Origin: Schmidtea polychroa
Taxonomy: Eukaryota
Direction: 5' to 3'
Length of the DNA: 64,000 nt
Assembly: GCA_044892525.1 (NCBI GenBank)
Contig: CM097886.1
Span: 2,790,001-2,854,000, forward strand
The position numbers and the translations under genes were made by a program. Of this stretch, positions 12,331 through 42,390 are shown piece after piece (position 1 is the first letter of the stretch; every line of letters starts with the position of its first letter). The notes below the pieces were generated by a model. That model worked only from the letters and a program-made list of their open reading frames with translations, made no database searches and had not been told where the DNA came from.

Positions 12331-15300
12331 TGTTGGGGTTACACCTCGGCTGACCGCTCTACCATATTGACGGGTCTAAGGGTTGATTGTCCATCTCGAA
12401 TAAAAGGTGCCACCGATTTGTCAACCTGGAGTGAAACCCCACATAATCTTTCTTCCAACATAGTGCCCGTGAATCACTTCACGTTGGTACTGCACTATGC
12501 AGGCGAGACACCAGCAAGCAGGTGAGCTTCTGCCTTGAAACTACTCCTTGCTGAGGCCTCGACTTCCCATTCACGACTGCCGATAGAAGGGCTTACGTCC
12601 ATTTCCTTACACAACCACTTATCAGGATTCGCTGAATGCAAATTGGGAATTTCTCACTAGATCCTGCGGGTTCTCTACTCAACCCACTTAATTAAAGTCT
12701 AATTATTCATGAACGAAAACGTGTAAGACAACAAGATTTATTAATTTCAACGTTATGACACAAGGATTCAGCTGTACACTTTACTAATGTTTGTCGAAAG
12801 AAGAGAAAACATCATAATCAACATAGATCGGATCCTTGTTCTTCATCCTGACCGCCACTGGGGTTCTATTGTTTCTCCCATTCAGCGTCGGCGAATAATT
12901 CGTCGAGGTTAAAAAACTCGGAAGCGTTCTCTTCCCACGTTACGCCAGCGGCTGATACGATTCGTGCTGAGGGTCCCGTTGTTAGGTCGATGGACACGTG
13001 AGAGTTACCACCGTTGGTTGAACCCTCTATTGATGGGATGGTTGGCTTTGTAGTGGCGCGTTCGCGCTGTCTCTTCTTGCGCTCTGCACGAGAGAGTTGT
13101 TTGCGCTTGGGTTTGCTTGAAGATGCCACTTGCAGAAGGGTGACAGGTACAGATGGACTAGCAGTGGGGGGCTTACTGGTACCCGTGACGACAACATCTG
13201 GTCGCTTGGGGGACAATTCGTTTTCGACGCAGTCTTGGCACGGTCTCTTGAACGGTGGAGATGGATTCGAGGAAAGGTTGTGATGGGGCGGAAAGATGTC
13301 ATCGGCCTCTCGGATGGGAATCTGCACTATTTTTCGGGTTGTAGCCGCCTGCACGTAAACCTTATGCAGTGCCTCGGATTGTTCTCTGATTAGACTTCTT
13401 TGGGCACGGCTCTCAGATATTAGCGCGTCCCGGCAATGCTCGCTACGATCGAGCTTCTTTTGGATCTCCTTCATCCGAGCGGGACTAAACCATGTCCCTT
13501 CCAGCTCGTCGATTTTTCGTTTATATCGACCGATCTGGGCTTGGAGATCTGTAATCACTGCATTTTTATCTGAGCAGGAGAAGCAGGGACGTAGAGCTGA
13601 TTTGTTGTTTGATAACATAATGGATGGCTAAAGAAGAAAACTATGGTGACTATATCTAAAAATTTCGGATCAGATATACGGTTTATTCGCTATTGGATAC
13701 TTAGTGCTGGAAGAAAACAAGACGAGTCGATGAAACAGGATCCCTCCCTTCACCCTTGATTACTAATAATTTACGTATCCTTTACAAAAATTATTCCTCA
13801 ACGCCCTGATTGCTTCCCTGACGAATGCAAATTATTTGTAAAAATTTTAATTTTCGTCTATCGCGTTCGAGTTGGATTTCTATCTATCGCACATAAAGGC
13901 AATTTACGGATTTGTTCATGCCGGAGTGAATAAACCTATTTCATTACAAATACACTATACTACACTTCGTTTAAATTTCGCTGATTATTTGTTGTTATTC
14001 TAATGCAAAATAAGGTTTTTGGACCACATGCGACTAGTAAAAACTTGCACCCTTACCTCAAGTAGCGGAATAAGTAACAACTCGTAATTTCGTATAAACT
14101 ATACGTCACTATTTTATGATTACCCCTTATCCATACCATACGGTGATATCGTCGTAGAAATATAGCATCGTAAAAATATTGTAATTACATAATAATTTGT
14201 TATCGGATTTAGTTTTCTATTACCATACGTCATTTACAGGGAATATGAGAAATTTAACTACAATATTACTAGCTATTTTATAACCCAAAAATTCCTGTAG
14301 ATACTTTAGTTAATTTAAATTTGGCTCGAAGGCTACTACTATTATTTGTAACATCTAATTAGAATTACGATAAACCTCTACAACACTTAGGTAAAACTTC
14401 CTATGGTTTAGTTATAAAGTTTGGTTTGAATTTTCGATTATTAATTAAAATACCCCTTCAACAATTTCGATTTTTATTTAGAATATTTAATTTAAGCAAA
14501 ATTATCTTTAATGAGTGCACTTTAGAGAGTCTCTTATCTTAGTAGTCGGTTACTGGTTATTTTGGCTTATCTTTTTAGTGGTACGAATGACCTTTATCAG
14601 TAGTGAAATTTAAGAGTCAGTCATCTGGAAGTCACATCTCATGTCAGCATTATCTAGTATGACCACTGATTACTACTCACACACTAAGAATCCTAGAGAG
14701 GGTGACACATGGCGGCATTCCCTGCGGTGAGAGGCATTCGGAATGATTCTGCTGTTTCTCATGCATATTTCTGACCGGATGACGCTACTCATAGTTATGT
14801 TAGCAGTATGTCTGTATGTATGGGTGCCTGTTCGATGGAAATTTTATCTGTAACTATCAACCGTACTGAGCGAACTGCAAATGTTACATCGCGTGTCGAT
14901 TCCCATCTGAGCTTATGATGTTGGATTTATTTACTACGACTCGTAATTTCCTCAATATTGGATGCTTTTGAACGATGGAAGATCTCTACGAACCAGCCAA
15001 CTAGACTCTATGAAGCATATTTCAGTAGTGGATATTTCGACGCAACAGCATGAAAATTATTCAATGGGTATTACCAGATTTTGTTAATATATGTGATTGA
15101 ATACAGTATTATTGTGGTTTTATGTTTTATTTTTCCCTTATTGTAAATTCCTCATCATATGCTAGGATTTGGATGTCGCATCTGAAAGAGATGACCTAAA
15201 TTAGAGTTACTTTTTCAAAAATCTACCGAATGCAATTTCAACTTCTCGATATGTTAGAAAACCAGCGATGGATGCTTAATGGTATTTTCCCCCACATGGT

Positions 15301-16490
15301 AAGTTCGGATTTATAGACAGAAGTGGCATGAATGTCTTGTAAGACGACTCTGGACAATACAGAGTTAATATGAGAACTCCCTCAGTCGCTGTGAAGCACA
15401 TATCCTATTTTCGAAAATTTCAGAAGGTTTCCTTTCGGTCTATATTTCGGTACTCTGACAGATTTTAAGTCCTTCAGCAATTGGACCCGTGAAGAAGCCT
15501 TCACATTTCGGCCCAATCTAGCTGCGTGATTGAAATACTCCATGTCCACCGGCTGAGCTCCCGAAGGCACCTCACACCATGACATGGAGTATCTCAACGC
15601 CACGTTTCTCGTTAATATTAGAAATCATAAAACTATCACTCAAAATAAATATCCATAAAAATTATGTAAGAGTTCACCTGTTACCAATAAATACTTTTAA
15701 ACATTTAAATTATTTACTTTATCAAAATCGTTATTCAGGATCAAATGAAAAGAGAGTCTGGTTAAATTTAAAAGTTTAATTGCTCATTAAATATACATAT
15801 TTACTATTAACTTCGAAAAACAATATCATAAATAAAAATCCCTTACTATGGAATTAGGCTGAATCGGAAAATTAACGTTAGTCGTTCCAAATTAGTCTGA
15901 TGATAGTTCGTCGAATGTCGATTGCTGTGACTGAGTTCGAATTGCTGTGAAGTTTTTCGAATTAACTGTTGCTCTACTTGTATTGCTGATCCTTGAAATA
16001 AGTCTCCGTGAGTTGTAGATGTCTATGAAATGCTCGGGGTTAACAGTAAAAACAGTAAACATTTTTCTTACCTATGAAATGCTCGGGGTTAACAGTAAAT
16101 TTAATGTTTTTGGTAGTTGTATATATATCAAATTCTTATTTGTGCGGACCAATCAGAGTTGAGTACCGCTTATTTCTATTAATTTAATATAATTTTCTTG
16201 TTTTTAGGTTGTTTTTTCCTTATTTTCTTTATTTTTAATATGTTTTTCTATTTATTTCCTTAATTTCCTTATTATTTCTTGAATTCCTCTTTATTTATTT
16301 GTCAACTTGTTCTATTTTAATCTTTTCTTAATTTTATTTTTTGTTTTAATTCTTATGTCTTAATTATTATCTTCCTTATATCTTATTCTATTTTATTTCT
16401 GATTTTATTTATTTTATTATTATTTTTCTTAATGTTCTACTTCCCTACTTTCTTATTTTTCAACGATTAAATTTCCGACTCAGCCCAACA
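12331..16490 (-). repeat. 3' LTR (4,160 bp)
   Basis: Direct repeat of 38572-42731; no difference seen in the segments compared by eye, and identical ORF sets in the ORF track. Confidence 0.97.
12866..13618 (-). CDS. LTR-encoded 250-aa protein of unknown function (3' LTR copy)
   Basis: Long GC-richer ORF: RPCxxC twice, coiled coil, basic KPKRKQLSRAERKKRQRER stretch, acidic/aromatic C-terminus. Acceptor ttttcttctttag 9 nt before the ATG; AATAAA at 12742-12737. Confidence 0.7.
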   Translation of the reverse strand: MLSNNKSALRPCFSCSDKNAVITDLQAQIGRYKRKIDELEGTWFSPARMKEIQKKLDRSEHCRDALISESRAQRSLIREQSEALHKVYVQAATTRKIVQIPIREADDIFPPHHNLSSNPSPPFKRPCQDCVENELSPKRPDVVVTGTSKPPTASPSVPVTLLQVASSSKPKRKQLSRAERKKRQRERATTKPTIPSIEGSTNGGNSHVSIDLTTGPSARIVSAAGVTWEENASEFFNLDELFADAEWEKQ

Positions 16491-16717
16491 AATCACTCGG
16501 GGACCCATCAAAATTGCGTCCCGCAATTGCATAATTAACTTAATTCATTCATTCGAAAAAAAAATATAACACGAACACGAAAAATTATACAACAATGATA
16601 AAAATTTTATTGTAAGATCAAGGTCAAAGCAAGATCAAGCAAGTATCACTTAAGGTGATAGTTTGTACATACAATAAAAGTTTCCACATATAATAACACA
16701 AATGTTTGAGTTAGAGT

Positions 16718-17374
16718 TTATGAACTGTTAACTATTGATGCTTCTGCTGGCGGCTGTTGGTTGGTTTGGGTATTAATGTTGAGATAGGTCTGACTATTAG
16801 ATTTCGGCTGGATTGGTTGATTACTCGGGGTTCGAGGTCGGTTAAGATTTGTCAGGGGCACTTCTTGAGGATTTTGGTTCGAGGTTACTCTTATTGATGT
16901 CGAGACTCTACATCTATTTCGAACTTCGTAAATTTTCATGAATATTGGTAGACATAGGAGGAGGGTTTCTGCGATCACCACATATATGAGATAATGGGTG
17001 TCATTGATTTCGGGAGGTATTTTTGGCTTTTCTACCAGATTCCCAAAATTCTCTTGTTGCATTTGTTGTTCCAACTGGTCGAATTGTTGAATTTGTTCGA
17101 GGATTTGTTTGTTTATCATTTTACAAATGGGATTCTTTTTACACATTGTTTGGATGTTGTTGATGTGTGATCGGGTTGATTGAATGGTTTGGATGATATG
17201 GGTTTTTACGGTCATCGGGTATGTGCATTGACTGGATTCTTGTTTAGGTTCTTGATTTTGATTTCGGTAATCTCGTACGATTTTCGGTTGGGCGTCTATT
17301 TGTTTGCTCTCCATCAGAATCATCAATACCATCATTGTTATCATCATCTCGCCTCGCATGATACTATTATACAT
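16718..17374 (-). CDS. 218-aa predicted type I membrane protein, unknown
   Basis: Met-rich signal MMITMMVLMILMESKQIDA|Q, Cys-containing helical ectodomain, TM YLIYVVIAETLLLCLPIFM, and a P/Q/N/T-rich tail. Confidence 0.7.
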   Translation of the reverse strand: MYNSIMRGEMMITMMVLMILMESKQIDAQPKIVRDYRNQNQEPKQESSQCTYPMTVKTHIIQTIQSTRSHINNIQTMCKKNPICKMINKQILEQIQQFDQLEQQMQQENFGNLVEKPKIPPEINDTHYLIYVVIAETLLLCLPIFMKIYEVRNRCRVSTSIRVTSNQNPQEVPLTNLNRPRTPSNQPIQPKSNSQTYLNINTQTNQQPPAEASIVNSS

Positions 17375-17414
17375 TCATTATGTTTATTTACAATTGGTTT
17401 TAATGACCCTTAAT

Positions 17415-18167
17415 TTAATGGTTCTGATTTGGATTATTTTCGCCGATTCTCATCAAGGTGGACTCTGCTTTAATTACCCTGTGTCTTAACTCGGGCAGCA
17501 TTTCCAATTGTCGGTCTTTTTCACGGGCTTCTCTCTTTAGATGTCTAATTTCTTTTTCCAAGCGTCTAATTTCTTCCCTTTTCTTTTCAAGGTTTCTTTT
17601 TAGCTCGATTTGTAGGAGATCTTGTTCGTTTTCTTGCAGGTAATTTTGTTGTTGATGTTTTCTTTCTATTTCTCTATATTTGCGGACCCACTTCCTCATT
17701 TCTTTACTTTCCCGTTGGTTTTCTTCTAGTTGTCGTTTTAATTTATTTATAGCTGTTTGGCGCTCCTTCGCCTCAGTTTTCCAGTAGTCTTGGATTACCT
17801 CCTTTGCTTTGAAGCTTGCCCTCTCTTTCCATAGTTCTTCCGCTATCTTTTCCCAGTTTTTCCCTCGCTTCCTTTGTTCGTGTAGCCATTCATTTTCCTC
17901 TTCCGTTTCTCTTTTTATTTCCCCCAACGCTTCGCACTCTTTCTTTAACACCTTTATCATTTTCCGGTCCTCCAGGTATTTGTTTATTAATCTCCCGTTT
18001 TCGTATTTCTCTTCCCGTAACTCGGCCTTTAGCGTTTGTGTTTCTGTTGTTTCTGCCTCAATCTCTCCCTCTTCTACGTCGCTCATAATTTCTATCATTT
18101 CCTCGATTTTCATATCTATAATATGTACAGTTAATGGTGCGCTATAGTGCGACTTATACGTATACAT
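17415..18167 (-). CDS. 250-aa (or 232-aa from ATG 18113) coiled-coil protein, unknown
   Basis: E/K/R-rich heptads with spaced Trp; attatag acceptor 2 nt before ATG 18113. Confidence 0.72.
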   Translation of the reverse strand: MYTYKSHYSAPLTVHIIDMKIEEMIEIMSDVEEGEIEAETTETQTLKAELREEKYENGRLINKYLEDRKMIKVLKKECEALGEIKRETEEENEWLHEQRKRGKNWEKIAEELWKERASFKAKEVIQDYWKTEAKERQTAINKLKRQLEENQRESKEMRKWVRKYREIERKHQQQNYLQENEQDLLQIELKRNLEKKREEIRRLEKEIRHLKREAREKDRQLEMLPELRHRVIKAESTLMRIGENNPNQNH

Positions 18168-18281
18168 TGATATAAAATTTAATAGTTTGGGTTACAGTCC
18201 CCTGAATACTTTTACAATACTTTAATTTTTTTGTTTGGGATATACGTCCCGGTTTTTAGTTTTTCATCTTTTCATCCATCC

Positions 18282-19337
18282 TCATACGAAGGTTTCCTCC
18301 TGGCCTACATAACCTTCATCACTATCGACCGTGGAATGTAACTGTATCGCAATAGGGTCGTATGGTAGGTAATATTGGGGAATTTGAGCTCTCAATTCAC
18401 TAACTTCGTCTCTTAGAGCTCGAGTGATATTCAATTCCTCGTCGAGCAGATAGGTGAGATACCTTGTCTCTTCATCTTTCGCCTCTATCTGTTTGTCTAG
18501 GGCCTTGATTTTCTCGTCGCCCTTCCATTTTTCAATTTCTATTTCTAAGTTTTTAATATTTTCGGTGTACATTTTCCTTTCGTTTTCTAATTTTCTGTTT
18601 TTTCCCGCTAGGACCATGTTTCTTTGTTCCAGCGATCCTTGTAATCCATTAAGGTCTCTTTTCATCTCTTCTACCTGATTTACTAATTCCACAACCCGTC
18701 CCGCTTGTTGGGTTATCATCTCTTCCATTGCGGCATTCTCGTGCTCTCTTATGTCGCACTTCATTGCCAAATGTCGCTCAAACTCCATAGCCTTTGTTTG
18801 CCAGGTTTGGCTTCGGGCGGCGACCTTTCTCAACCTTTTCAATTCTTCCTTTATTATTAAATTCTCCTCCCATTTACCTTGTTCGCTTTCATATCCGAGT
18901 CTCCTGGGCAATTCTTTCATCTCTTTTTTCATGTCTCTGTTTTGTCTTTTCCATTTTCTCGCTTCTGCCACTAAGTGCATCATTTTCCTGTCTTCTATTT
19001 GCTTTTCCGCTTCGCGCTTGGTGTTCTCATCGGTAAGTCTTTTTCTCGCTTCCTGCACTAGCTGCTTTAAGTAGTGGCTGTGTGCTTCTTGGCGGGTATT
19101 TTCTAGTGACGCCCATTTTGATGCTCTTTTGCATGCTTCTGCTTCCGCTCTTAAGTTGTGTATTAACCATTGGTATTGACTATTCTCATCTTCTCTAGTT
19201 TCTTCGATGTGATTTCGGGTGAGATTAGTTAGTTGGAACATTACTTTGTTCCATTTTTTGTTATGTTCTCGGGGAATTTGTGTCTTGTTGACATTGGTTG
19301 GGTCTATCGCAGTTTCGGTTATTTTCTCTTGTGTCAT
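18282..19337 (-). CDS. 351-aa coiled-coil protein, unknown
   Basis: Long E/K/R-rich heptad ORF; tttag acceptor 2 nt before the ATG. Confidence 0.75.
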   Translation of the reverse strand: MTQEKITETAIDPTNVNKTQIPREHNKKWNKVMFQLTNLTRNHIEETREDENSQYQWLIHNLRAEAEACKRASKWASLENTRQEAHSHYLKQLVQEARKRLTDENTKREAEKQIEDRKMMHLVAEARKWKRQNRDMKKEMKELPRRLGYESEQGKWEENLIIKEELKRLRKVAARSQTWQTKAMEFERHLAMKCDIREHENAAMEEMITQQAGRVVELVNQVEEMKRDLNGLQGSLEQRNMVLAGKNRKLENERKMYTENIKNLEIEIEKWKGDEKIKALDKQIEAKDEETRYLTYLLDEELNITRALRDEVSELRAQIPQYYLPYDPIAIQLHSTVDSDEGYVGQEETFV

Positions 19338-19530
19338 TTCTAAATCATAGACATCGATTAATCTTTTTATTATGAAAAAGGAATTTATTCATTATTTACT
19401 GTTTCTTGGGAAATTTTCGCATCATTTTTGGGTTTTCGTATTTAGGGTTTTCATACTATTATTATATAATATTTTATTAGTTATATACACCGATATATAC
19501 AGATTATTATATACAACATTATTCGATTGG

Positions 19531-20919
19531 TTATTCCGTTCTACCCTTCTCCTCTTTCCTCACGGTCATCTTGATATATATGGTATCATTTCTCGCCATA
19601 TCTTCTACTCTTTGTTGTGAGATGAACGTAGGTGCTCCTGTTGCTGATCCTTCTTCGTTGAGGGGCCTCTGGTAAGCTATTTGATTCCCCGTTGTTTTGA
19701 AGCTTTGCTCATATATACTTTGGTTGTTCATCAGAGTAATATCGATTTTTGCCTGGAACGGCCATTCTAATATTTCGTCGTATTCTCCTTTACATAACAG
19801 AAAGAAAATCGAAAAGTGCGTATCTAATCCGGTTCCGTCCCCGTTGGGATATAGCTTCATTTTCATTTTGTACCCATTTTTCCAAGAATGGAATGTAGGA
19901 CTTGTTATTCTTGTCTCTTCTCCGGTTTTTGCTTTTCGTATTCTTTCTTTTACTCCCGTTATTTTCCATATGTAGGGTGCTGTTGGGGTTATCTCATTTA
20001 GATTTATTTCCCGTATTTTCTGATGTAGCTCCTTGGCCTGATTATTACTAATTTCTGTTCGGTTTATTTGCATCTTTATGTTTGCTCGGGCTTCTTCGAA
20101 CGCTTTCCTTTCTTCTAGTAGTTCTTTGACTAACACTTTCAACGATGTTATCTCTATCTCCATTTGTTTTACTTTCTCTTCGCTTTCTTGTAACGCAGTC
20201 GACCACATTTCTGCGTGAGTTGAAGCATTTTCTACTAAATGATGTGGTAACTCACCTCGGTGTAGTAATTTCTGACAACCCCATCTACCTAGTACACATG
20301 TCATTCTTTTCTTTTCGCATTCCCTTAGATGCTGTGCCACCTTTATTGTTTCCCCTTGGTTACATCCGTTTGGGCATTCCCCACTGAACTCCGCACATAC
20401 TCTCTCCTCTTGGACATTGTGATGTTTGAGGGTGAGATTTATCCACGTATCTATTTCTCCACAGTGTTCACATCTTTCCAATCTCTCCTCACACTGCCTT
20501 TGATGCTCTTTTTCTTCGCTTGCTCGAATGGTTTTATGGCACCTTTCACACTGGCCAATTCTGTACATACATTCTCCCATATGTTGTACTACCTTCCATA
20601 TTACTCCTTTCCATTCGCATGGGGCATTTTTGCATCCCAGGTTGGTGTTTAACATGTCTTTCACTGCGGCTTTATCCTCGTTAGTGTCTTCTAAACTCGA
20701 TATTAGTGTCTCTTTACACACCGGGCACCTTTGTGGTCTATTCTTTATTGCTTCACTGATACATTCTTTACATACTCTGCATCCACATTGCGTTTGGTGA
20801 GGTTCCTTTAACAACTTTTCACATATTCCGCACATAACATGTTTGTGTATTCTGATCGTTGTAGATTTTCGGACTTGCTCGACAATCTCTCTGAACTCTT
20901 CTCTTTGTCGTTTATCCAT
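19531..20919 (-). CDS. TRAF: Intronless full-length TRAF homologue (RING, zf-TRAF repeats, coiled coil, MATH), 462 aa
   Basis: CGIC..CGCRVCKEC..CPVC; five Cys/His fingers; YIWKI...SPTF...GYKMKMKLYPNGDGTGLDTHFSIFFLLCKGEYDEILEWPF...G.PTF. Confidence 0.93.
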   Translation of the reverse strand: MDKRQREEFREIVEQVRKSTTIRIHKHVMCGICEKLLKEPHQTQCGCRVCKECISEAIKNRPQRCPVCKETLISSLEDTNEDKAAVKDMLNTNLGCKNAPCEWKGVIWKVVQHMGECMYRIGQCERCHKTIRASEEKEHQRQCEERLERCEHCGEIDTWINLTLKHHNVQEERVCAEFSGECPNGCNQGETIKVAQHLRECEKKRMTCVLGRWGCQKLLHRGELPHHLVENASTHAEMWSTALQESEEKVKQMEIEITSLKVLVKELLEERKAFEEARANIKMQINRTEISNNQAKELHQKIREINLNEITPTAPYIWKITGVKERIRKAKTGEETRITSPTFHSWKNGYKMKMKLYPNGDGTGLDTHFSIFFLLCKGEYDEILEWPFQAKIDITLMNNQSIYEQSFKTTGNQIAYQRPLNEEGSATGAPTFISQQRVEDMARNDTIYIKMTVRKEEKGRTE

Positions 20920-21004
20920 TCTATAATTATATGTACAAATAGTTCTTATCGATACAGGTTCGATATTTTATTTACAATTATTTACATTTTGAGCTAGGTT
21001 TGGT

Positions 21005-21364
21005 TTAGGGTTCGGAAGAGTCGGCTTCGTGTCCGCTCTCCTCTCTATTCATTAGCCATTCCGACCAGTCTTCTATTTCTGTCTGTTCTGCTTCCTCCAT
21101 CATTCTGTCTATTTCAATTTCCTGTCGACGGCTATATTGGGTTATCCTCTCTATCTCTCTTTGCATTTGTTCGATTTTTAACCTCTGGTCTTCAATTATC
21201 TTCAAATAACTAAATCCTCTGTTCATACTCTCGATCAGGTTTCTGTGCATCGTCAGTCCTTGTTCTTGCAAATTGGACACTAATTGTGCTAATACGGCAC
21301 ATTGTTGCTTCCATAATTCTTCAGTTACTGTATTGTGGTTCATTTCGTTATTTCCTTGATCCAT
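21005..21364 (-). CDS. 119-aa coiled-coil protein, unknown (track start is a TTG at 21388; first ATG at 21364)
   Basis: Same strand and purine-rich composition as neighbouring ORFs; TAG acceptor 2 nt before the ATG; AATAAA at 20972-20967. Confidence 0.65.
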   Translation of the reverse strand: MDQGNNEMNHNTVTEELWKQQCAVLAQLVSNLQEQGLTMHRNLIESMNRGFSYLKIIEDQRLKIEQMQREIERITQYSRRQEIEIDRMMEEAEQTEIEDWSEWLMNREESGHEADSSEP

Positions 21365-21524
21365 TCCTAATTTATATACTCTTTTCAACTCTTATGTAAA
21401 TTTAATTTTATTTTATGATTCCCGTTATTGTATAATATTGATACCGCGCTTATATAAAGATATAATACTGTTATATACATAAGATATACTTACTTTTTAC
21501 AATTATATACAGTCATATTCCTTT

Positions 21525-22526
21525 CTATATACGTGAGTTTGGAGGGCGCTGAGCGTTCCAGGCCTCCACCCACTGTTCTTGTTTGATATCACTTGGTCGT
21601 TTCACTCGATGTTGGAAATTTCTGATTCGAGTCATCTCTAGTTCTCCGCGATGTCGTTTACCCTTAATTATTTTTATTGTTCCCCCCGTTATGATTAAGA
21701 ATGCCCCTGTTATTATTATCCCACTGATCCACATCATCTGCTTCACGCTTATACTCTCTGGTTTTTCCTGGTTTGTTAATGTTGATATTGCTTCTGTACT
21801 TTTCTCGTTCCCTCTTTTGCCGTTTCCTTTCATCCTTTCCCGTATTCTTGCTATTTCCTCGTTCATACCCTCCTTTGCCATCTTTTGTATTTTTTCCATC
21901 TCTTCTTCCGAAACATAGTTGTCCTGAGCTTCCTCGCCGGTTTTCTTGTGCTTTCCTCCTTCGTCCTTTTCGTCGTGGTTTTTCCTTTTCTTTCCTCTTT
22001 TCCCCGGGTATCGTCGGCATTCTCTTTTTGATTCGTTTCTCCAGATACAAACCGTATATTCCTTCGGGGGCTGCTGCTGCGTCACATATTGATGGCATCT
22101 CTCACCCGGTCCTAATCTTGAAATACAGACTTTGTGCTCTTTTCTTGGTTGGAGCTGCGTTATTACTACTTCGCCACCTTTTCCTAGGTGTACCTCTTTT
22201 CCTTTAACGTTCGTTATTCTTTTCCCGTCTCGGTTTCGGTATGCTTCTTGTATTCTTACTTCTGTTATTGGTTCTGTGTCCTCATTTATCAGTACTAGTT
22301 TCTGATACGCTCTAGACATGCATCTTCCTAGTATGCACCTTTCCTTTAAGTCCCATTCTTCCTTTAAATCCCACTGCTGCTCTTGTGCTTGCTTTTTCTT
22401 TTCTTGTTTTAGTTCGTCCTCTTTGCTATCTTGATTCTCCGCTTCTTTGGTTTCTTTTATCGTCCTCGTCCCTCCATGAGCTGTTACTAACTCTATCATG
22501 GTAAGCATAATTATCATTAATATCAT
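21525..22526 (-). other. C-terminal second membrane-protein module (signal-like segment, Cys-containing ectodomain, TM, short tail)
   Basis: MILMIIMLTMIELVTA|HG (22526-22479); VVITQLQPRKEHKVCI, resembling an FN3 strand motif; TM MMWISGIIITGAFLIITGGTIKII (21737-21666). Confidence 0.6.
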
Positions 22527-28500: not shown

Positions 28501-31500
28501 TCGCTGTTAGATGATTGGCTTCTAAATCGGTCCAAGAATTTTGGCTTATTCTTTTTCAATTGTCGTCTTGTTGCTTCATCGTACATTACTTTCCGGAATC
28601 GTCTGCCTACTTCTTCGTCGGTTCCTTTAATCTTTGTTAATATTTTTATCAATCGCTTTATCCGATGGATGTCTTTTGAGTGGCCATGTAATACCATGGT
28701 TTTAGCTAAAAATGGTAAGAAGCCTACTATCATTTTCCAGTTAACTTTCTTTTCCCGCTTGTATATATCGAAACAAGCTAACATTTGTGTTAGTATTACT
28801 CTGACTATCTGAATTATGAGTATGATCCCTAATATCCCGGCCATCATTTGTCCGAAAACTAAGAATCTTCCCCACATTGCTTTCATCATGTTTGACGTAG
28901 CTTGTTGAAAATGGTCTGGCGATAATAGCAGCTCGTAATTCGGGCCTGATTGATAGTTTGTGCCCCCAGTTATTGTTACCATATTAGACAAAATGGATTC
29001 TCGTCTGGCTGGGAAGAGTACGTTAAGTCGTGCTGTTTCTAGATCTTCTGGGGAATACATACCACCGTTTGACACGTCTATAGGTTTGAAATCCAGCTCT
29101 GTGGCGAGTTCTATTAATCCAAATTTCTTGGGCTCCTCGGATATGGTTTTTCCCGGTAACATCATCCATTTCCCATCGGGCCTTTCATATAAAGGTCCGT
29201 ATGCATTAGAACAGTTAAAGAGATTTGGGTAGAAACCCACTGGATTCATAATTCTAGTGACTGGTTGGACGAATCGATTTTGTCCTTTATAACGAATTTC
29301 TAATTCATTTGCACATCTCTTTTCGGGTAGTATGGATTTTTCTGGCATTCGTGCATACGTCTTGGTACACTGGTATGTGTACATCACTTCTCCTACCATT
29401 CTACCAAAGTGTCCATCTGGTAATGGGAGTGATGGCATCGTGTTATCGGGGTGCGTTATCGCAATAGCTAGCTTTGTTTTCAATATTTCTTTATTCAATG
29501 AACAATCGTTTTGTATCAGATCGTAATATACTTTTTGCAAGGTCGTTTGTCCACGATGAAATAGAAAATCCATTTTATTATTTGCATATAAGTATAGTTT
29601 TACGTCCTCCGTTGCTATCTTTCCCACTGCTCTATCGATTATTTGTCTCGACATGTAGATACCTGCGTAATTGGTTTTATATACTATACTGTCACATTTG
29701 GTGGTTTCTTTCTCTTTGATAAATCTCATACCTAGATCTGGATCGTCTGTGATTAATGCTGTTGGTGTCTTCTGCGTTGAAAGTCTCTTTTCTCTGGGAG
29801 ATGGTGGCATTGGTTTTCCATTTCGCATTCTCACTCTGTCGTTTCCATCCTCGTCGTTCTCGTTCTCATATATTTCTCCTTTTACTTCATTGAACAAAGC
29901 ACTTTTTAACAGTTGGAGTCGGCATTTTTGGGTATTAGCTTCATAGATTATAGTTGATACTCCTGTCCTACATACGTTTTCTGTAGCTTTACACGTTGGG
30001 TTGGTCTTCATTTGATAATTATTTGCGTCAAATTGCGCTTCGTATTCTTTTAATTCAACCGTGTAAGACTCGATCACTACGACTCCCGATATTACCTCGC
30101 CTCGGATCGTATACGTACCTCCGTTACATGACCCATCTGATGATTTTACTTTTCCGGATACGTAAACACTTTCGGTTTTAATCATTCCAGTTTGTCCGTG
30201 AATCGTCACTCCGTTATGCATTTTTAGCGCTCCGGTTCTAAATAGCTCTTTACAATCCTCTCGTTGTATTGATACGATTTCTTTATCCAGACCAGGTAGT
30301 ATAAGAGTCGAATACGAATATTGTCCACAGTAATATGCGAGTACCTTTTTTGATACCACGCATTCCCTTGCTTGCGTTCTGATGAAATCTGATTCTTGAT
30401 ATACATGGTAAGTAACTTTTGTTCTCACGATGTCCAATTTGTTGGGTGAGGCTTGTCTGCATTCTTCTATGTCTCTCAACGAGTATTTGTCTCTCATTAT
30501 CATATTATCACAATCGTAGATGGTAAAACCTGTTGCTCCACTTGTGCACAACATCCATATCATCATAGTCATCATTAACGAATTTATCGATGCTTTTCGG
30601 CTTGCTGGGTCTTTCATGGGTAGTTCCCATTCTAGTTCATTCAACAACTTCTTCAATCTAACTTGCATCGACCTTTCTTGCTCATTTTTTCGTGGCGCTT
30701 GTATAAGTCTTTTCCATCCTCCGGCACGAATAATATGTGGTTCAATAGTATTCTCTATGATTGAAACGGTCATTTCCACATGATTTGCAAACTGTTTATT
30801 TGGTATTTTCCTCGCAGCTAGTCCCATCAAATTATACATCAAATAAGTGATTACCACTAGGTGATGCTCGTCATCATTTGCATTTGTCGTGAGCTGCTCA
30901 ATCACTCTCTTTGTTTCGTCCCAATCCGTTTTGGTGGTTTTCGTTTTCTCTTTGATTAACTTTGGGATTATCCCCGAAACGATGTGCCATAATTGTCTAG
31001 CTTCCGTACTGGCTACTTTCCGTTGCCACAAACGTCTAAGTTGTGGGTTTGTTATTATTAACATATCTTTGATCAATTCTCGTATCCATTTTTCTCCTCT
31101 TTCGATCGTTGGTTGGGCTTCCTTTAGATCCCATACTATTTTATCCAATTTTTCTAATCGAACTTGCCCTTGTTCTTGCTTTAATTGTTCTTTGGTTTTG
31201 AACTCAGACTTTTCTCCTTGTTTCTTAGGTCTTCCTTTTGCCCGTTTTTCCATCATCGTTCCGGCTTCTCTGGTATTTTCGTAATTCGGATTTCTTTCGT
31301 TATCCGTTCTGGGTAATGAGCTATCGTTATTTCTTAGCCACTCATTCCATTCGTCTATTATTTTATCGGTTTGACCTTCTGGTGTTACTTTCGTTGGTTC
31401 TCTTTGCTTCTGGAATTGTTCATCCGTTTCGGTTTCCGTAGTATTGTCGATGATTTCTTTGCTGTTCAGTTTCGTTGGTTGTTGATAACTCGTTGATGGC

Positions 31501-34500
31501 TGGTTATTAGTCCACATTTCGGCTCCTGTCGGCCATCTCACTAATAGCGGTGATCTTTCTCCTGGTTCATCGTCACTATCTTCCAGGATTATCTCTTCAA
31601 CTTCTTCAGTTTCATTAGATTTACTTGGTGCTTTGTTCGGACTTGGAGTACTCAAACTGCCTTTTGTTGGTTTAATAATTTTACTTTTCCTTTTTAACGG
31701 TTTTCCCAACGTTTCTGCCATTGTTAACACATTTGTCTCTTCCAATCTCATGGGTGTTATCCCGACGTCTGCATTATCGTCTAGTGATTTTCCGAACAGT
31801 TGCAGATGGAATGGAGTTTCATATGCTAATTTCTTTTTTAATTCTCTAATTTTTGTTGTTGGATGCACCTCTAGTTCCTCGATGCTCTTGTCCGGATACT
31901 TGATTCGGATGTGATACCTCTCCTGAGTGTCTTGTGCCCATTCCTGATTTCTCCATTTTCGAATAATTTGTTCTAGCTGTTCTGGATACCATTCATTATA
32001 TTGCCGGTATTCCTCTATTGCCTTTGCCATTCCTCTCAGATTGTGGATGTTCTCTGATGTCTTTAAGATGATGTTAGCCAACGCTACTACTTGGCGTTTT
32101 TGATTTTTCGCTCCCATTGCTAAGATATCGCCTAATTGTTTATATCTTTCTGTCTCTTCTCGTTCTCTTGCTTCCGTCGCTTCCTCGCCGTCCATATCAG
32201 CATATTCACGTTCCTTTTTCCTCATTGCATGAATATGTCTCGCTTCATTTTCGCTTTCTGATGTGACATCCGTCTCGCTTTCGTCATCTGATGTCTGTCC
32301 CCTTGCTTCCTCTTCATATTCTGGGGGTTCCTCTTCTTCTTCCTCCGATTCACTTTCTGTCTCACCAATGTCTGTTTCTACGAAGATTCCTTTCCGGATT
32401 TCCCATTCCTTACTTTCTGCATTCCACACTCTTTCCCATGGGGTTCGTCTGCAGGATCTGGTATTTAATTTCGTGATTTTTCCTTGTAGCTCTTTTTCTT
32501 TTAACCATTGTTGGTGGATTTCAATTATTTCTGTCGATTTTTGATACAACGTTTTCATCCGGTCTCGTATTTCTTTTTGATATGTTACATCTCTTGTTCG
32601 GAATTCATCCATTGGTACTATCCTGATTATCTGATGATTGTCCCACATACCCATTTCGCTTAACGAGGTGTCGTCCTCCGCTCGTAATATTATCTTATCG
32701 TACATCATGACTACATCATCCACCATACCATCACTACTTTCGCTACGTACCTTTTCCGTTATCTCTTGGTTTATTTTTGATACCAAGTCATCCACTGTAC
32801 TCTGATTGCTCATTCTTATTCGTCGTTTTTCTTCGTTCGGTAACCATATGGTTATTTCCAACCTCTGTGGCTGGGTTTCTTTTAACCTTCCATATTTGTG
32901 GATCAAATTTATGGTTCTCCAATCACTCATTCGGAGCATTTCTGTATCTCGCAACCGGCTCATTAGTTCGTACATGGCTGGGGCTCGTCTGGTGATGAGT
33001 AAATCCCAGTTGTCTTCTACTTGTTCTTGAATTTGTTTGATCAGCTTATCCAGGTTTCGTCTCAGAGTACATTGTTTTATTTGTTCTAATTTCAATTTGA
33101 TATTAAAATCATATTCTGCCTTGGCATCTTTAGCCCAATCGTAAAGGTGGGCTGGTTGTTTTTCTTTATGCAACTTCAGTATTTGCGTTTCTCCTGGCCA
33201 TATTAGTGCATCTACTAAGTGCATATCTGGTTTGATCCGTCCTCCTTGGTATTGATACAGATATTCTTTCTTTCTCGAACTTCCCAAATGTTCTCGTATC
33301 CAATCGAAAAGTTCGTCGGTGACTGTATTTTTTATCCACATTCTTTCAAGTCCTCTACTCGTTCCAATTTTTATTACATACCGCGTGGTATCGGCCTGCT
33401 TCATTTTTTCCATATAGTTTTTTATAATTGGTTTTTCCTCGTTTGGTATTAGATCTTTCTCGTTTCTTTCCAATTTCATCACTTTTTGCACGAATCGCCT
33501 GAATGGTATTACGTCGATGAACTCTTGGTTCCTCACTACTACTGGGAGTATTTCGGCTACCTGTTTTATCGCTTCCTCCCTTGCTTTTCTCAACTTTATT
33601 TCGATATCTTCGTCTTCACTTTCGCTGGTTATCTCGTTTCCGCTTTCTTCCTCTTTGATTTCCCCTTTTGAGGGTTCGCTTATTTCATTCGGCTGTAGTA
33701 TTTCTCCACCCAAACTACTTACATAATCTTCTTCTTCGTCTGACGATGCTACATCTTTTGTCCTTTTCATCATATTGATTTGCAAGTTTCTCATCCTTGG
33801 TACTCTCTTTAGTTTCTTTCTTTCGAATATTGTTGTTTCTTCTGATTCTGATTCTTGTAGCATTTGGTGATTTAGTTGACTGGTTTGTTCCTCGCTCTTG
33901 TTATTTTCATCTTCTGTCTCAGTTTTCGCTTTATTATGTTCTTTTTCGATTTTATCCTTTATCTTTTTCCAGAATATTTTCTGAATTCTCTGGTTTCCCT
34001 TTGAAATCGTGGTTGAATTCTCTGTTTTCATTTCCGTTGTTATTTCCTTTACTTTTTCTGGTTCAGTCATGGGTACTACCCTTGGGCTTTTCCCGTAATT
34101 GTAGCAATACTGGCTCTTCATGTCTTTTACTAACTTCATCATATTTATTCGCAATGGTTGTTCTTGTCGTTGTTGGTTGCGTTCTTGTTTTATCCTCTCT
34201 TCCTCGGCCTGTAGCCTTTGCCATTCTTGTACATGTTGATGCACTTCATAATTGTTGAGATTTTCGGTACTCCTCATCATACGTATATTCTGGGTTTGTT
34301 GTGGTGCTGATTCTTGTCTTGGTCTCATCATTTGTTGCATCATCTGTTTCATCTGCGAAATTTCCTGCATAACGTTCATTTGTTTTCCTTCGTTAGGGTT
34401 ACTTTGTCGTTGCGGATTCGCTATATAATTATTATTTCGCTGTGGTGGTCGTTGTTGTTGGCCCCTTTCTCGGCAATCTCTGGAGATGTGACCTGGCTGA

Positions 34501-35378
34501 CCACAGTTAAAACAGCCTCGCAATTGGCATACATTTTCGGTATGTCCACGCCGTCCGCAACGATTACAATTTGAATTTCTATAACAATCTCTGTCCCAGT
34601 GTCCTGGTTTACCGCATGTTCGGCACTGCTTGTTATCGTTCATATTTCGCCGATTATTGAAATTGTTCTCATTATTCGGGTTGTTACGATTACCATTATT
34701 CCCGTTTGATCGTCCTTGTGGTGGTTTGAAAATTTGGTGCGCTCCTGGTATAAATTGATTCATTTTCGGTTCTTGATTGTTGTTATCTCCGTTATCCGCT
34801 TTCGCTATTGCTGTCGCTATCCTTCCCTCCTCTTGCATAATATTCATTTGAGCTGGAAGGTGGAGCTCGCATCTTGTAGCCCAATCTATGGCTTCCTCTA
34901 ATGTTTTGCACATTTGACAACCTACTGAGGCTCTTACTTCTTCTCGGCGTAATCCCTCTATGAAATAACCAATCAGATTTTCTTCGGGTAATTTTCCATT
35001 CATTGCTTTCTTCGCTAATCTCCGCAATTCACTGGCATATAATGTTATCGATTCGTTTGCTCTTTGTTTCCTATTTGCTAGTTCGCCCAACGCCTGGTTG
35101 ATTGGCTTACTGGCTCCGAAGGTTTTCTTCAGGAATGTTTTAATATCTTCCCACTTTTCTAATTTCGTGTCTCTCTCTTTAGCTTCTAAATATACCTCTA
35201 ATGCACTATCGCACAAAAACAACGGCATCCTTTTACTAATTGCTTCGGGTGTCCATCCACACACAGTGATATAAACTTCAAAATTAGTTATGAACGTTGC
35301 TAGCTTGTTTGCATTTCCGTTGAACGGTTCTCCTCTGAACTTCTCTTTATACTCGTCGGTTTTTACGACATTCGTCAT
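21525..35378 (-). CDS. 4,617-aa single-ORF polyprotein: Gag-Ubl x3-Bcl2-like-Env-PR-RT-RH-IN-ANK-membrane module
   Basis: Uninterrupted ORF; domain motifs are itemised in the following features. Confidence 0.95.
   Translation of the reverse strand: [4617 protein letters not shown]
22995..24500 (-). other. Two ankyrin-repeat blocks (24020-24500, 22995-23475) fused downstream of integrase
   Basis: [48 protein letters not shown]. Confidence 0.85.
24800..25860 (-). other. Integrase (HHCC, DDE, GPY/F)
   Basis: HDGRLGGH...CLTC; [34 protein letters not shown]. Confidence 0.95.
26150..27420 (-). other. pol: Reverse transcriptase (YIDD 26930-26919) and RNase H
   Basis: [75 protein letters not shown]. 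Confidence 0.97.
27600..28200 (-). other. Aspartic protease (DTG at 28148) followed by a dUTPase-fold-like spacer
   Basis: [12 protein letters not shown]...IIGTDLM; spacer [15 protein letters not shown]...IPLNITNF. Confidence 0.85.
28791..30587 (-). other. env: Envelope glycoprotein, chuvirus (Jingchuvirales) G-like / class III fusogen-like, with internal signal peptide and TM anchor
   Basis: Signal [21 protein letters not shown] (30587-30528); YDC, [51 protein letters not shown]...LFPA motifs; furin-like REKR (29795-29784); TM [25 protein letters not shown] (28865-28791). Confidence 0.8.
30700..31170 (-). other. Bcl-2-like helical domain
   Basis: BH2-like [14 protein letters not shown] and a divergent BH1-position segment [16 protein letters not shown] at Bcl-2-like spacing; the NWGR motif is not conserved. 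Confidence 0.55.
31719..33386 (-). other. Three ubiquitin/SUMO-like modules (33168-33386, 32613-32861, 31719-31916)
   Basis: Each about 65-85 aa with a beta-grasp-like pattern, e.g. [30 protein letters not shown]...[10 protein letters not shown] and [29 protein letters not shown]. Recognised by eye only. Confidence 0.55.
34473..35378 (-). other. gag: Gag region: capsid-like domain plus three CCHC zinc knuckles (aa 252-302)
   Basis: [19 protein letters not shown]...W; [42 protein letters not shown]. Confidence 0.9.
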
Positions 35379-36632
35379 GATTGGTGTTCTAGGTTCGTCT
35401 GTTTCTTTTAAATTGTCTAACGATGTGACTAAACTTTGGGCTGATAATTCTTCGGTTGACGTTGCTAAACTATTAGTGATATCGGACAGACTTTCTCTAC
35501 TTCGAGATCGACTAGGGGTATATCCGAGATTTTCTTGGTCAAATATGGGTACTTGATTGGTTCTTCTGGATCCTTGTGATATTCCTCTTTGATGTTTAAT
35601 GGATCGTCCTCTTTTGAGTTGTTGTAATTCGTCTCCTGAAAATAATACGTCTCCTGGCTTACTTGAAGATCTAAGATTGGGTTTATCCGTGATTCCTTTC
35701 TTACGCTTCTTGGTAATTAGCGGCTATTGAATTGGTCGCGTTCGGTTCTGATTGTGTTTCTAATCCTTGGCAGATGGCTGCTAATACTTCTTCCGTTCGG
35801 GAGTCTTCCGGTTGCTGTGTCTCTCGGTGCGGGTTCTGAATGGATTTATCCTTGGTTGATTGTCGATTTCTTCGAATTCCTTTTGTGCAGGTTCTGGATT
35901 GTCTTGGTTGGCTGGATTGGCTTGATATCTAAAATGAAAAAATGATCTCGTGTTGCATTTGCTTACACGACTTCATCATTCTTTCTACAACGTTCAAAAA
36001 CAGACACCTTTTAGGTTTCTGTTTGTGCTTCCCCTATCTTTTGTGAAATCCTTTCTGCGGGTTATAATATCCCATCAGCCCGTATTTTCCGTCGATTTTA
36101 AATTATCTATATGGGGTAGTAACAATTATCTATAAAGTCGTAATAATTATCTATTCGTTATCAATTATAGTAAAAATAGGTCGTTGTCGGTCTCTGCTTA
36201 TTACCCCCCTTTCATTTTCCTAATCCTTTTGCGCTGTTGTCGCTATTTTACTTTTCATATTCACTATTATTACGCTCGGTTCTACTCTGGAACCAATAAA
36301 ATGCATTTTCCCGGTTTAACCAAAAAAAATATTCCGTAGAGTTTCTCTACTTCACTGGGATCCCTTTAATTAGTTAGTTACTTTCCTCTTTACTCATTAT
36401 CATCATTTCATCTACTCTTTATTTTCTATTATCTCTTTAATTCGTTTCCTTCTTCCCTTTCCTTTTTCATTATAATCTTATTTTCTTTTCCACGAGCTCG
36501 TTTATTTCCTCTCTAAACTCGAATTTTCAAAATTACATTCAATTTGTTCTAGCTAGCTTTAATATTCCATATCACTAGTAATTTAAATATTATCTCATTG
36601 TAGCTTAACTGCTATCTCTCGCTTTTCTAGGC

Positions 36633-37150
36633 CTTTACGACTGGCTGGCACTATTCAACAGCTCAATCTTCTTCCTTCTGATCGGTTGGACTATTCAACA
36701 ACTCAATCTTACGACTGGCTGGCACTATTCAACAGCTCAATCTTCCTCCTTCCTGATCGGTTGGACTTTTCACAACTCGACCTTACGACTGGCTGGCACT
36801 ATTCAACAGCTCAGTCTTCCTCCTTCCTGATCGGTTGGACTTTTCACAACTCGACCTTACGACTGGCTGGCACTATTCAACAGCTCAATCTTCCTCCTTC
36901 CTGATCGGTTGGACTTTTCACAACTCGACCTTACGACTGGCTGGCACTATTCAACAGCTCAATCTTCCTCCTTCCTGATCGGTTGGACTTTTCACAACTC
37001 GACCTTACGACTGGCTGGCACTATTCAACAGCTCAATCTTCCTCCTTCCTGATCGGTTGGACTTTTTCACAACTCGACCTTACGACTGGCTGGCACTATT
37101 CAACAGCTCAATCTTCCTCCTTGACCGGCTGGATTATTCGACAGCTCGGC
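36633..37150. repeat. Tandem array of a 74-bp unit (about 6.7 copies) in the element leader
   Basis: Unit starts at about 36634, 36707, 36781, 36855, 36929, 37003 and 37078. Confidence 0.93.
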
Positions 37151-37743
37151 TTTAATATTCCTCGCTCTGCATGCTTCTATTTCTCTTTTCTTCTTTTACT
37201 CTAGTTTACCATTTTCTCTATCTACTTTTAATTTGTCGACTTAATCTTTACCGCTTGGGAGTGTTTCCCCTTTCCCCCCTTGCTCAAAACGCACGACGAT
37301 CGCGATGATCCATTTCTACATTGGCATGGTGATCAGTCATGTCGCAAAAACTTCTCATCATATGCGATGGTACCCCGCCCTACGCTTCTTACTTGGGTTG
37401 ATCAGTTATCCCCTCCCAACGGGTTCTTGCAATAAGACGTACCGCCCGAAGGTGGCTCGGTTTGTACCCCTGCAGTCTATATTGGGACTAATTCCACGTT
37501 ATTCAACCCTCTCTTCATTTGATTCCAAAAAAAAAAAAAAAAAAAAAAAGGAATAAAACAAAATAAACACGCAAATGTTCATTCGTCATGCAAATTTTAT
37601 TAGTCCTAATCATCAAAACTTTTTAAAGACGAATTTATTTATCATAAACATAAAGATTGAATCATTAACAGTACGTGTTACTTCAACAATTTCATGCATT
37701 CTTGTTCAAACATCGTATACTTGCTGTTACATCGCCGGCCGTT

Positions 37744-38229
37744 TCATTCGCCATAATAGACCATATGGGTCTCTTTTATTTCATATTTGCACATCGTGCA
37801 TCTTTTTAGGTCTTTTACACACTCTTCACAGTGACTGAGGTGTCCACACGGCAAGAATAATACGCGAATAGGACGGAGTTTGCAGGCTATACAAGTTCGT
37901 AATTGGTTAACTTTTTCCTGTATTTTTTGTTCGATTGCATCTGGTATTGTATTTAGTGGGTCTTTTAGACGCTGATAATCTAGATTTAATGTTGGGTGGT
38001 TCAATCTCTCTTGATACCACTGATATACGGTTTCGGGGTTTATTTTTCCATCTGGGCGACTTAGGCCTGTGGCTAATATCATATGATTAGGTACGACTGG
38101 TGTTTGTCCGATTGCTTGCAGTAATATCGCGTTGATTTTTTCTCTTTTATGCGTCAGTGTTGTTAGGGAGTCGTTTTCTATATCGATAAACTTGAGCAGT
38201 TGTTGCATTTGGTTCGCGAATTCTGTCAT
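37744..38229 (-). CDS. 161-aa protein with C-terminal IAP/MDM2-type RING finger (no BIR seen)
   Basis: CIACKLRPIRVLFLPCGHLSHCEECVKDLKRCTMCKYEIKETHMVYY, near the C-terminus; acceptor ttttccaacag 2 nt before the ATG. Confidence 0.85.
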   Translation of the reverse strand: MTEFANQMQQLLKFIDIENDSLTTLTHKREKINAILLQAIGQTPVVPNHMILATGLSRPDGKINPETVYQWYQERLNHPTLNLDYQRLKDPLNTIPDAIEQKIQEKVNQLRTCIACKLRPIRVLFLPCGHLSHCEECVKDLKRCTMCKYEIKETHMVYYGE

Positions 38230-38546
38230 AGCTGTTGGAAAAGTAATGTTTTAATAATATGTAGTAAATTAATAGTTAATTCGTTAATTGGTTTCTTTAA
38301 CCATTGTTAATTATTTAATTTGACTACTTTATCTCCTTTATTTATATATATCCTTAATTTTTCTATTATCTACATTTTGATTTTCTCTACTTAGTTCCTA
38401 ATATAATTTAATAATCAATAGTCAATTTGCATTCGTCAAGCAATGGTCGGTTGAAAACAGAAAATCGATGTGATAAATCCCTTTAATTTTGTATGAAAAT
38501 CCCGGTGAATTTCGCATTCGTTAATAGAAATTTCGATCGACTGTAT

Positions 38547-38564
38547 ATCCCGGCTGAGCCCCCA
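38547..38564 (-). promoter_or_regulatory. Primer-binding site, tRNA-Pro-like
   Basis: Minus strand TGGGGGCTCAGCCGGGAT, 7 nt inside the 5' LTR; 16/18 identical to the classical MLV tRNA-Pro PBS TGGGGGCTCGTCCGGGAT. Confidence 0.85.
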
Positions 38565-42263: not shown

Positions 42264-42390
42264 CTATGAAATGCTCGGGGTTAACAGTAAAAACAGTAAA
42301 CATTTTTCTTACCTATGAAATGCTCGGGGTTAACAGTAAATTTAATGTTTTTGGTAGTTGTATATATATCAAATTCTTATTTGTGCGGAC
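42264..42390 (-). promoter_or_regulatory. Candidate LTR promoter/leader: CCAAT box, TATA-like tract, 28-bp direct repeat x2 enclosing a GTAAG donor (also 16023-16150)
   Basis: ggaccaatcag, then a TATATA tract, then repeats at 42340-42313 and 42291-42264; minus strand reads ...catag|gtaagaa. Confidence 0.45.

Follow-up and report, generated by a model that had tools for sequence, protein, structure and literature searches.

Conserved acceptor-like sites and a predicted leader intron suggest alternative splicing in a Burro-like Ty3/gypsy element of Schmidtea polychroa

The window analysed here, a 64,000-nucleotide (nt) stretch of the Schmidtea polychroa genome (GenBank assembly GCA_044892525.1, contig CM097886.1, positions 2,790,001 to 2,854,000), contains a full-length Burro-like Ty3/gypsy element bounded by long terminal repeats (LTRs). 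All element coordinates are window positions on the minus strand (Table 1). Around a giant polyprotein open reading frame (ORF) lie seven accessory ORFs: the LTR-ORF of 250 amino acids (aa), present once in each LTR, a RING ORF before the polyprotein, and five ORFs after it. An AG stands just ahead of each accessory start and is conserved in related elements. From the features described below, it is probable that the seven accessory ORFs and the polyprotein are expressed by cis-splicing of one ATG-free, two-exon LTR leader to alternative acceptors.

On the polyprotein, Pfam matches follow the order gag, CCHC, fusion glycoprotein (PF24664), protease, reverse transcriptase (RT), RNase H, integrase and ankyrin. 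PF24664 occupies residues 1868-2207 and the protease residues 2397-2488, which places an env-like region in frame between gag and protease. The last ORF (213 aa) has hydrophobic N-terminal and internal stretches by eye. We call the element Burro-like because its layout fits the published Burro/GYPSM1 but a BIR domain was not found: Pfam gave no BIR match in the eight proteins of the window, and lineage B, introduced below, has one. Likewise, BCL2-like and ubiquitin-like motifs had no Pfam match at E 0.01 in the window proteins (the published review used HHpred). The genome holds at least 92 copies of the TRAF-like ORF at 94-100% identity, and the promoter motif matches 831 places in it.

Table 1. 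Features of the element, 5' to 3' along its transcript (window positions, minus strand; gap, number of nt from AG to ATG; the slash in a motif marks the cut)
Feature	Position	Details
Full-length Burro-like Ty3/gypsy LTR element	12331..42731	30,401 bp; TG...CA ends; 4-bp target-site duplication ATAG
5' LTR	38572..42731	4,160 bp; 100% identity with 3' LTR
CCAAT-type box; TATA-like box	42397-42390; 42368-42361	predicted transcription start ~42340
Predicted exon 1 (unit X1)	42313..42340	28 nt; TAG at end
Predicted mini-intron	42264..42312	49 nt; donor D1 GTAAGA at 42312
Predicted exon 2	42088..42263	leader without ATG
Conserved donor D2, predicted major donor	42082..42087	ATA/GTAAGG
Acceptor (G 39869) and LTR-ORF	39107..39870	250 aa; no Pfam match; gap 9; second copy 12866-13629 (acceptor 13628, gap 9)
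AATAAA after LTR-ORF	38978..38983	predicted LTR poly(A) signal
Acceptor (G 38232) and RING ORF	37744..38233	161 aa; PF13920; gap 2
AATAAA after RING ORF	37601-37596	T-rich stretch downstream
Predicted polyprotein acceptor (G 35929) and gag leader	35379..35930	550 ATG-free nt, then polyprotein start
Polyprotein	21525..35378	4,617 aa; ORF calling and Pfam
UGUAHAUA motifs	17385..21511	first copies 21511, 20986, 19515, 17392
Acceptor (G 21367) and 119-aa ORF	21005..21368	no Pfam match; gap 2
Acceptor (G 20921) and TRAF-like ORF	19531..20922	462 aa; RING and MATH; gap 1
Acceptor (G 19340) and 351-aa ORF	18282..19341	coiled-coil-like by composition only; gap 2
Acceptor (G 18116) and 232-aa ORF	17415..18117	from ATG 18113; upstream ATG 18167 not conserved; gap 2
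Acceptor (G 17364) and last ORF	16718..17365	213 aa from ATG 17359; gap 4
AATAAA after last ORF	16611-16606	T-rich stretch downstream
3' LTR	12331..16490	carries same promoter, donors (16071, 15846) and LTR-ORF

A sequence-only reading of this DNA had claimed that a YAG precedes a start ATG of every accessory ORF, and all seven of its YAG-ATG junctions are present on the minus strand. Its caveat that three ORFs use an ATG other than the first is right in that a downstream ATG is needed, but only for two ORFs (18167 and 17374) when ORFs are called from ATG alone. A YAG stands 1-9 nt ahead of 147 of the 604 minus-strand ATGs of the element (24%); against this background, five of the seven first ATGs in the window have one (p=0.011). 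Taken alone, the window pattern is real but modest, suggestive and not decisive.

We compared the window element (A) with five others fetched from the genome, A1, A2, D, B and C. A1 and A2 are near the window element (LTR-ORF identity 79% and 64%), and A, A1 and A2 share 94-100% identity in the TRAF-like ORF. The accessory proteins of D are 37-73% identical to those of the window and those of B and C 25-41%; in B and C, MATH also occurs within the polyprotein. Conservation of the acceptors, which the earlier reading had suggested as a check, is borne out by this comparison: the five other lineages keep an AG 0-9 nt ahead of the matching start despite diverged upstream DNA. Across the 37 accessory ORFs scored in the six elements (eight of them on a second ATG picked by homology), YAG lies 0-9 nt before the chosen ATG in 32; among the remaining five, four have AAG 0-1 nt before the ATG, and in one a TAG precedes a second ATG by 2 nt. 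The Y of YAG switches between C and T among lineages, and the gap of 0-9 nt keeps to no frame, which is what a non-coding leader would give.

The pattern is repeated in lineage B, where YAG lies 0-4 nt upstream of five of seven first ATGs (p=0.001); of the remaining two ORFs, one has AAG immediately ahead of its ATG, and in the other a TAG stands 2 nt ahead of a second ATG located 18 nt further along. Among 20 more loci, 11 LTR-ORF starts could be scored, and YAG stands 0-10 nt upstream, behind a T/C-rich tract, in 10 of them. Near-identical copies (n=30) keep the AG at 30/30 starts of the TRAF-like ORF, 26/26 scored starts of the 351-aa ORF and 30/30 starts of the 119-aa ORF (one as AAG). In L035, A2, L145 and L148 the 232-aa ORF lacks its upstream ATG, which supports the ATG that the earlier reading had chosen for this ORF. 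Chance placement of YAG near ATG in AT-rich DNA, aided by post hoc choice of ATG, could draw on the background frequency and on the second ATGs used by two window ORFs, but the recurrence in lineage B and in the further LTR-ORF starts leaves it scarcely credible.

Some of the compared copies have features of their own. In lineages B and C (L048:1773-2870 and L052:5449-6600), the LTR-ORF is in two segments around a T-rich, stop-containing stretch with an acceptor-like end, and the first segment in B begins TAG/aa/ATG; this LTR-ORF possibly contains an intron. In L148:0-3135, a lineage B copy, the TRAF-like ORF is the end of an open frame of at least 1,044 aa, which suggests fusion to upstream coding sequence. 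Profile (Pfam) searches of the genome returned a compact 3,334-aa family, whose sampled copy has a 1,061-bp LTR and no convincing accessory ORF, as well as degenerate elements and host TRAF genes; they added no test lineage. A pattern search for lineage D LTRs gave two loci only.

The spacers between ORFs bear on how the downstream ORFs could be reached. Sixteen spacers of A, D and B contain 49 ATGs where 38.8 are expected, with at least one ATG in every spacer. Because the spacers are not depleted of ATG, scanning across them is unlikely. An AG lies 0-4 nt before the start in 16/16, and the next AG is at least 14 nt away in 15/16.

The spacers also carry an 8-nt motif, UGUAHAUA, which equals the Pumilio consensus. 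It starts 14, 19, 16 and 23 nt past the stops of the polyprotein, 119-aa, TRAF-like and 232-aa ORFs. There are 25 copies in 2,064 nt of spacers and one in 30,846 nt of coding sequence, and 300 dinucleotide shuffles of the spacers gave a mean of 1.98 and a maximum of 6 (~12-fold enrichment). The first copy lies 14-23 nt past the stop in 20 of 27 internal ORFs compared and in none of 15 terminal ORFs. The idea that host genes carry the motif in general was rejected: among 17 host TRAF genes, none shows it at +14 to +23 and one has it at ~+38. UGUA as a CFIm poly(A) enhancer is likewise disfavoured, given that planarian poly(A) signals are described as having no UGUA upstream in the available part of the source (PMC5068929).

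Two other explanations turn on this motif. One is that each ORF has an internal promoter, with TGTATATA/TGTAAATA acting as TATA- or forkhead-like boxes, and with (A/T)TAG as a start site just before the ATG. The likeness of the motif to the LTR TATA box and to forkhead sites and its enrichment in spacers would fit. Its distance, however, is fixed to the upstream stop and ranges over 32-201 nt from the 3' end of the spacer; spacers contain upstream ATGs, in several only 8-19 nt away; and TAG, CAG and AAG interchange at the junctions as they do at acceptors. We consider internal promoters very unlikely. The other is a polycistronic RNA translated by termination-reinitiation or leaky scanning, in which the motif is a reinitiation signal and the AGs are incidental. 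A motif bound to stops that have a downstream neighbour, and found after none of the terminal ORFs, is what this explanation would predict, but it leaves the conserved AG and donors unexplained, has to cope with the many ATGs of the spacers, and does not suit the RING ORF and LTR-ORF, which have no nearby upstream ORF and 4-41 upstream ATGs. We give it even less credence than internal promoters.

Evidence for a spliced leader segment at the 5' end comes from the LTR. The A- and D-type LTRs all begin with an A-rich tract, a CCAAT-type box and a TATA box, and the start site was predicted from the usual distance of about TATA+28 to +31. Within the predicted mini-intron of the window, the last 28 nt (42291-42264) are an exact copy of exon 1 and end in the acceptor AG. 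We compared 36 LTR starts, of which 31 are distinct; the mini-intron is present in 27 of the 31 and absent in four. The 27 have YAG/GT at TATA+53 to +58 (one at +66) and an intron of 44-54 nt, whose last 24 nt equal the 24 nt ahead of the donor exactly in 19 cases (mean 97%; two are weak, at 71%). Between lineages the units are 67% identical, there are 22 distinct units, and the closest match of a unit is its own partner in 25 of 27 LTRs. The identity of the repeat (26-28 nt) begins near TATA+28 to +31, fading upstream at about -26 to -29, and falls at the donor, where 27/27 match at -1 and 11 at +1. L074, which is without the mini-intron, has the sequence expected if the A1 form were spliced.

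Simple tandem duplication was rejected as the origin of the exon 1 copy, as the identity spans ~26-28 nt of the 44-54-nt period and stops at the donor. The footprint is likely that of a spliced genomic RNA and of reverse transcription rewriting the tail of the intron. As to its birth, exon 2 starts with GTA or GTAA in 9 of the 27 LTRs (L065, L070, L071, L076, L078, L079, L083, L085 and L092), hinting that the mini-intron arose by duplication of an AG/GTAAG site. L092 also has a partial third copy of the unit.

A second donor, GTAAG, lies at TATA+226 to +290 in 23 of these 27 LTRs, and the T content there climbs from ~0.26 to 0.48. The predicted leaders contain 3 ATGs in 4,098 nt, against 120 in equal lengths past D2. 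Lineages B and C have one GTAAG donor shortly downstream of the TATA box. The sequence-only reading had named 42312 as a candidate leader donor. A GTAAGA is indeed present there and conserved, but its likeliest partner is the acceptor 49 nt downstream (42264) and not the distal ones; 42312 thus likely serves the mini-intron locally, and 42087 is likely the major donor and partner of the distal acceptors. Further GTAAG donor-like sites, conserved in A, A1 and D, are found on the minus strand at 35966, 38 nt before the gag acceptor, at 35662, inside the gag leader, and at 38837, in U5. These three may delimit a third leader exon, or may be sites at which U1 binds and so suppresses polyadenylation.

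The polyprotein, too, appears to have an acceptor, at 35929. An ATG-free stretch of 523-693 nt precedes gag in 5/5 elements, where 7-9 ATGs are expected, and it starts 24-27 nt ahead of the acceptor-like site. Within this leader (35723-35379, minus strand), 115 codons ahead of the first ATG are free of stops in the gag frame, and the final ~100 of them show conservation as protein in A and D. A conserved ATC-ACG-G at ~35690 could be a non-AUG start for an N-terminally extended Gag.

At the 3' side, the three terminal ORFs (LTR-ORF, RING ORF and last ORF) are each trailed by AATAAA and T- or GT-rich sequence. With poly(A) signals at these three places only, the internal ORFs would carry long 3' untranslated regions (UTRs). 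The UGUAHAUA motif may flag the internal stops with a long 3' UTR behind them, and may protect or regulate the mRNAs concerned; this is the weakest step of our proposal.

The acceptors by themselves cannot separate cis- from trans-splicing. In an operon-like scheme, a polycistronic RNA would be cut at each AG, the host spliced leader (SL) added, and 3' ends formed in the spacers. In Schmidtea mediterranea SL trans-splicing has been described, flatworms are known to have operons, and parasitic flatworms widely use the same acceptors in cis and in trans, according to the available part of one report (PMC12582326). The spacers are short (55-217 nt) and AATAAA occurs in 11 of 16, the spacers being A-rich. 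The earlier reading had argued against trans-splicing on the ground that an SL AUG would be out of frame for six of the seven ORFs. Its arithmetic is correct, but the argument does not exclude trans-splicing, as flatworm SL AUGs are often out of frame; a search by title or abstract found no flatworm-specific literature on the matter. Against the operon, two conserved donors (the function of D2 being a prediction) and an ATG-free leader upstream of all acceptors need no trans-splicing, the AG-ATG gap is free of frame across lineages, and the strongest poly(A)-like sites trail the terminal ORFs only. We regard the operon as unlikely. SL trans-splicing could also act alongside cis-splicing.

Cis-splicing of the LTR leader is the best-supported explanation because of the conserved AGs, the conserved donors, the ATG-free leader and the spacers that are not depleted of ATG. 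To this extent the proposal made from the sequence stands; the leader donor is corrected to 42087, the polyprotein is added to the spliced products, and the monocistronic spliced mRNAs that it envisaged are predictions. Several observations weigh against cis-splicing or narrow what it can claim. Because A, A1 and A2 lie close to one another, the internal ORFs are represented by about three independent lineages. Upstream of the last ORF, an in-frame ATG persists in 4/4 A-type lineages (A, A1, A2 and D), which makes ATG 17359 a tentative start. The five downstream acceptors are without a polypyrimidine tract, and UUNYAG, the motif at trans-splice acceptors of parasitic flatworms in the part of PMC12582326 available to us, is matched by two of seven accessory acceptors only. 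The LTR leader of lineage B contains one ATG. The copied exon backs D1 and the start site, not splicing from D2 to distal sites, and LTRs without the mini-intron could also come from deletion between the repeats. Splicing from 42087 to 17364 demands a 24.7-kb intron that skips seven acceptors. UGUAHAUA is absent after 7 of 27 internal stops, those of the A-type 351-aa ORF, the B and C BIR-RING ORF and one frameshifted polyprotein. Lastly, no junction read or joined contig was seen among contigs over 37600-42500, which are uninformative on this point.

These contigs came from four of 12 sequencing runs (X6, X5, X3 and X1, of uncertain or guessed kind). Four runs of uncertain kind contained 63-66% of the sequence words, and eight runs guessed to be RNA 0-4%. 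None of the 15 joints found in the contigs is a predicted junction (42312/42264, 42087/39869 or 42087/38232), although such contigs show presence and not absence. No loose end at 39869 or 38232 is among the 24 listed (there are 301 more), and one X6 contig, RNA by guess, runs unspliced through the RING acceptor.

The apparent acceptors of host TRAF genes, whose boundaries are predicted, are likewise A/T-rich with short T tracts, and one is AAG. A second motif, resembling TGTA(A/C/T)A(T/A)A, is frequent 8-20 nt upstream of acceptors 20921, 18116 and 17364 and of the orthologous sites; it possibly stands in for the pyrimidine tract.

We propose the following scheme for cis-splicing of the LTR leader. 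Transcription would start at about 42340, and the 49-nt intron 42312-42264 would be removed, also from full-length genomic RNA. During minus-strand transfer, the spliced 5' end (strong-stop DNA) would pair with the 3' LTR copy, which is unspliced, at the tail of its intron. The tail would thus be rewritten from exon 1 and the acceptor AG recreated in each cycle, so that the intron survives reverse transcription. Donor 42087 would be joined to 39869, 38232, 35929, 21367, 20921, 19340, 18116 or 17364, while RNA unspliced at 42087 would retain the primer site and serve as genome. The mRNAs would end at one of the three strong poly(A) signals, in the LTR, after the RING ORF or after the last ORF. 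In our assessment the junction pattern is real and conserved, and the mechanism is well supported by footprints in the DNA and inferred for RNA. More tentative, and on balance doubtful as a whole, is the full programme: an adenovirus-like arrangement of a two-exon leader, eight acceptors over 25 kb and three poly(A) sites, combined with a self-regenerating LTR intron and a Pumilio-type shield against nonsense-mediated decay.

Other features were noted in and around the element. The LTR-ORF (39107-39859) has a basic tail, KPKRKQLSRAERKKRQRER. A primer-binding-site-like sequence at 38571-38546 (minus strand), common to A, A1, D and B and several nt off the LTR end, presumably matches tRNA-Pro. 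About seven tandem copies of a 74-bp unit lie at 36635-37154, between the RING ORF and gag. Two weak PDEase_I matches, below the Pfam cut-off, flank the element in order on the plus strand (6092-6247 and 44654-44896); the element thus probably lies, in antisense orientation, within an intron of a phosphodiesterase gene of the host. A hAT dimerisation-domain remnant lies beside the 3' LTR (11560-11937, minus strand), and on the other side are two inverted copies (671 bp, 97.6%) of an RT-containing gypsy fragment (45546-46216 and 48269-48932) and a 17-bp repeat array (50702-50803) that by eye resembles the LTR repeats of the compact 3,334-aa family.

In layout the element comes closest to the planarian Burro/GYPSM1, compared here by its published description: a ~30-kb element whose giant polyprotein has env in frame between gag and pol, with ankyrin repeats, cargo of the RING and MATH types, and accessory ORFs (PMC6431247, in the part available to us). 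The window element shares a length above 30 kb with LTRs and one giant ORF in which an N-terminal gag and CCHC accompany protease, RT, RNase H and integrase. It differs in lacking a BIR match and in carrying MATH in a TRAF-like ORF of its own, downstream of pol. The available part of that source does not address how the Burro accessory ORFs are expressed. BURRO1 is transcribed and silenced by piwi in S. mediterranea (available part of PMC8532177). By listing and abstract, we found nothing in the literature on splicing of Burro RNA, on a self-renewing, exon-copying LTR intron or on a Pumilio-type motif after the stops of retroelements. The main text of PMC13524379, whose supplements may bear on these elements, mentions neither splicing, Burro nor Schmidtea.

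Complex retroviruses splice one leader to several acceptors, and at the sequence level the window element resembles them, with its predicted major donor placed in the 5' leader and a series of acceptors ahead of accessory genes. Unlike in complex retroviruses, its env-like region lies inside the polyprotein before the protease and not in a separate gene after pol, so that the element is not a member of Retroviridae and only works alike. It also differs in a predicted R region of ~3.4 kb that contains an ORF, in three predicted poly(A) sites and in the exon-1-copying LTR intron. The adenovirus major late unit has a multi-exon non-coding leader, many acceptors and several poly(A) sites, but it belongs to a DNA virus, without the constraint that reverse transcription places on keeping an intron. 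As described in the available parts of the sources, foamy viruses place their major donor inside the LTR and ahead of the poly(A) signal, and use U1 binding to suppress 5' polyadenylation (PMC3694450), and the LTR of HTLV-1 contains a donor and an acceptor (10.1101/2023.01.28.526022). The RSE of Rous sarcoma virus, which lies just past a stop before a long 3' UTR, is ~400 nt, binds PTBP1 and is position-dependent (PMC4764554, available part); the window element has in that position the 8-nt UGUAHAUA, a candidate only.

The map gives exact, primer-ready junctions for apoptosis- and ubiquitin-related cargo of the Burro type. In planarian cells, the stop-proximal motif could be tested as a small candidate element that protects mRNAs with long 3' UTRs. 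If the proposed mechanism is true, a Ty3/gypsy element would have reached the splicing of complex viruses independently. In that case, the exon-copying intron would record the start site and donor in the DNA, and would answer how a retroelement that is spliced at its 5' end still transmits its intron.

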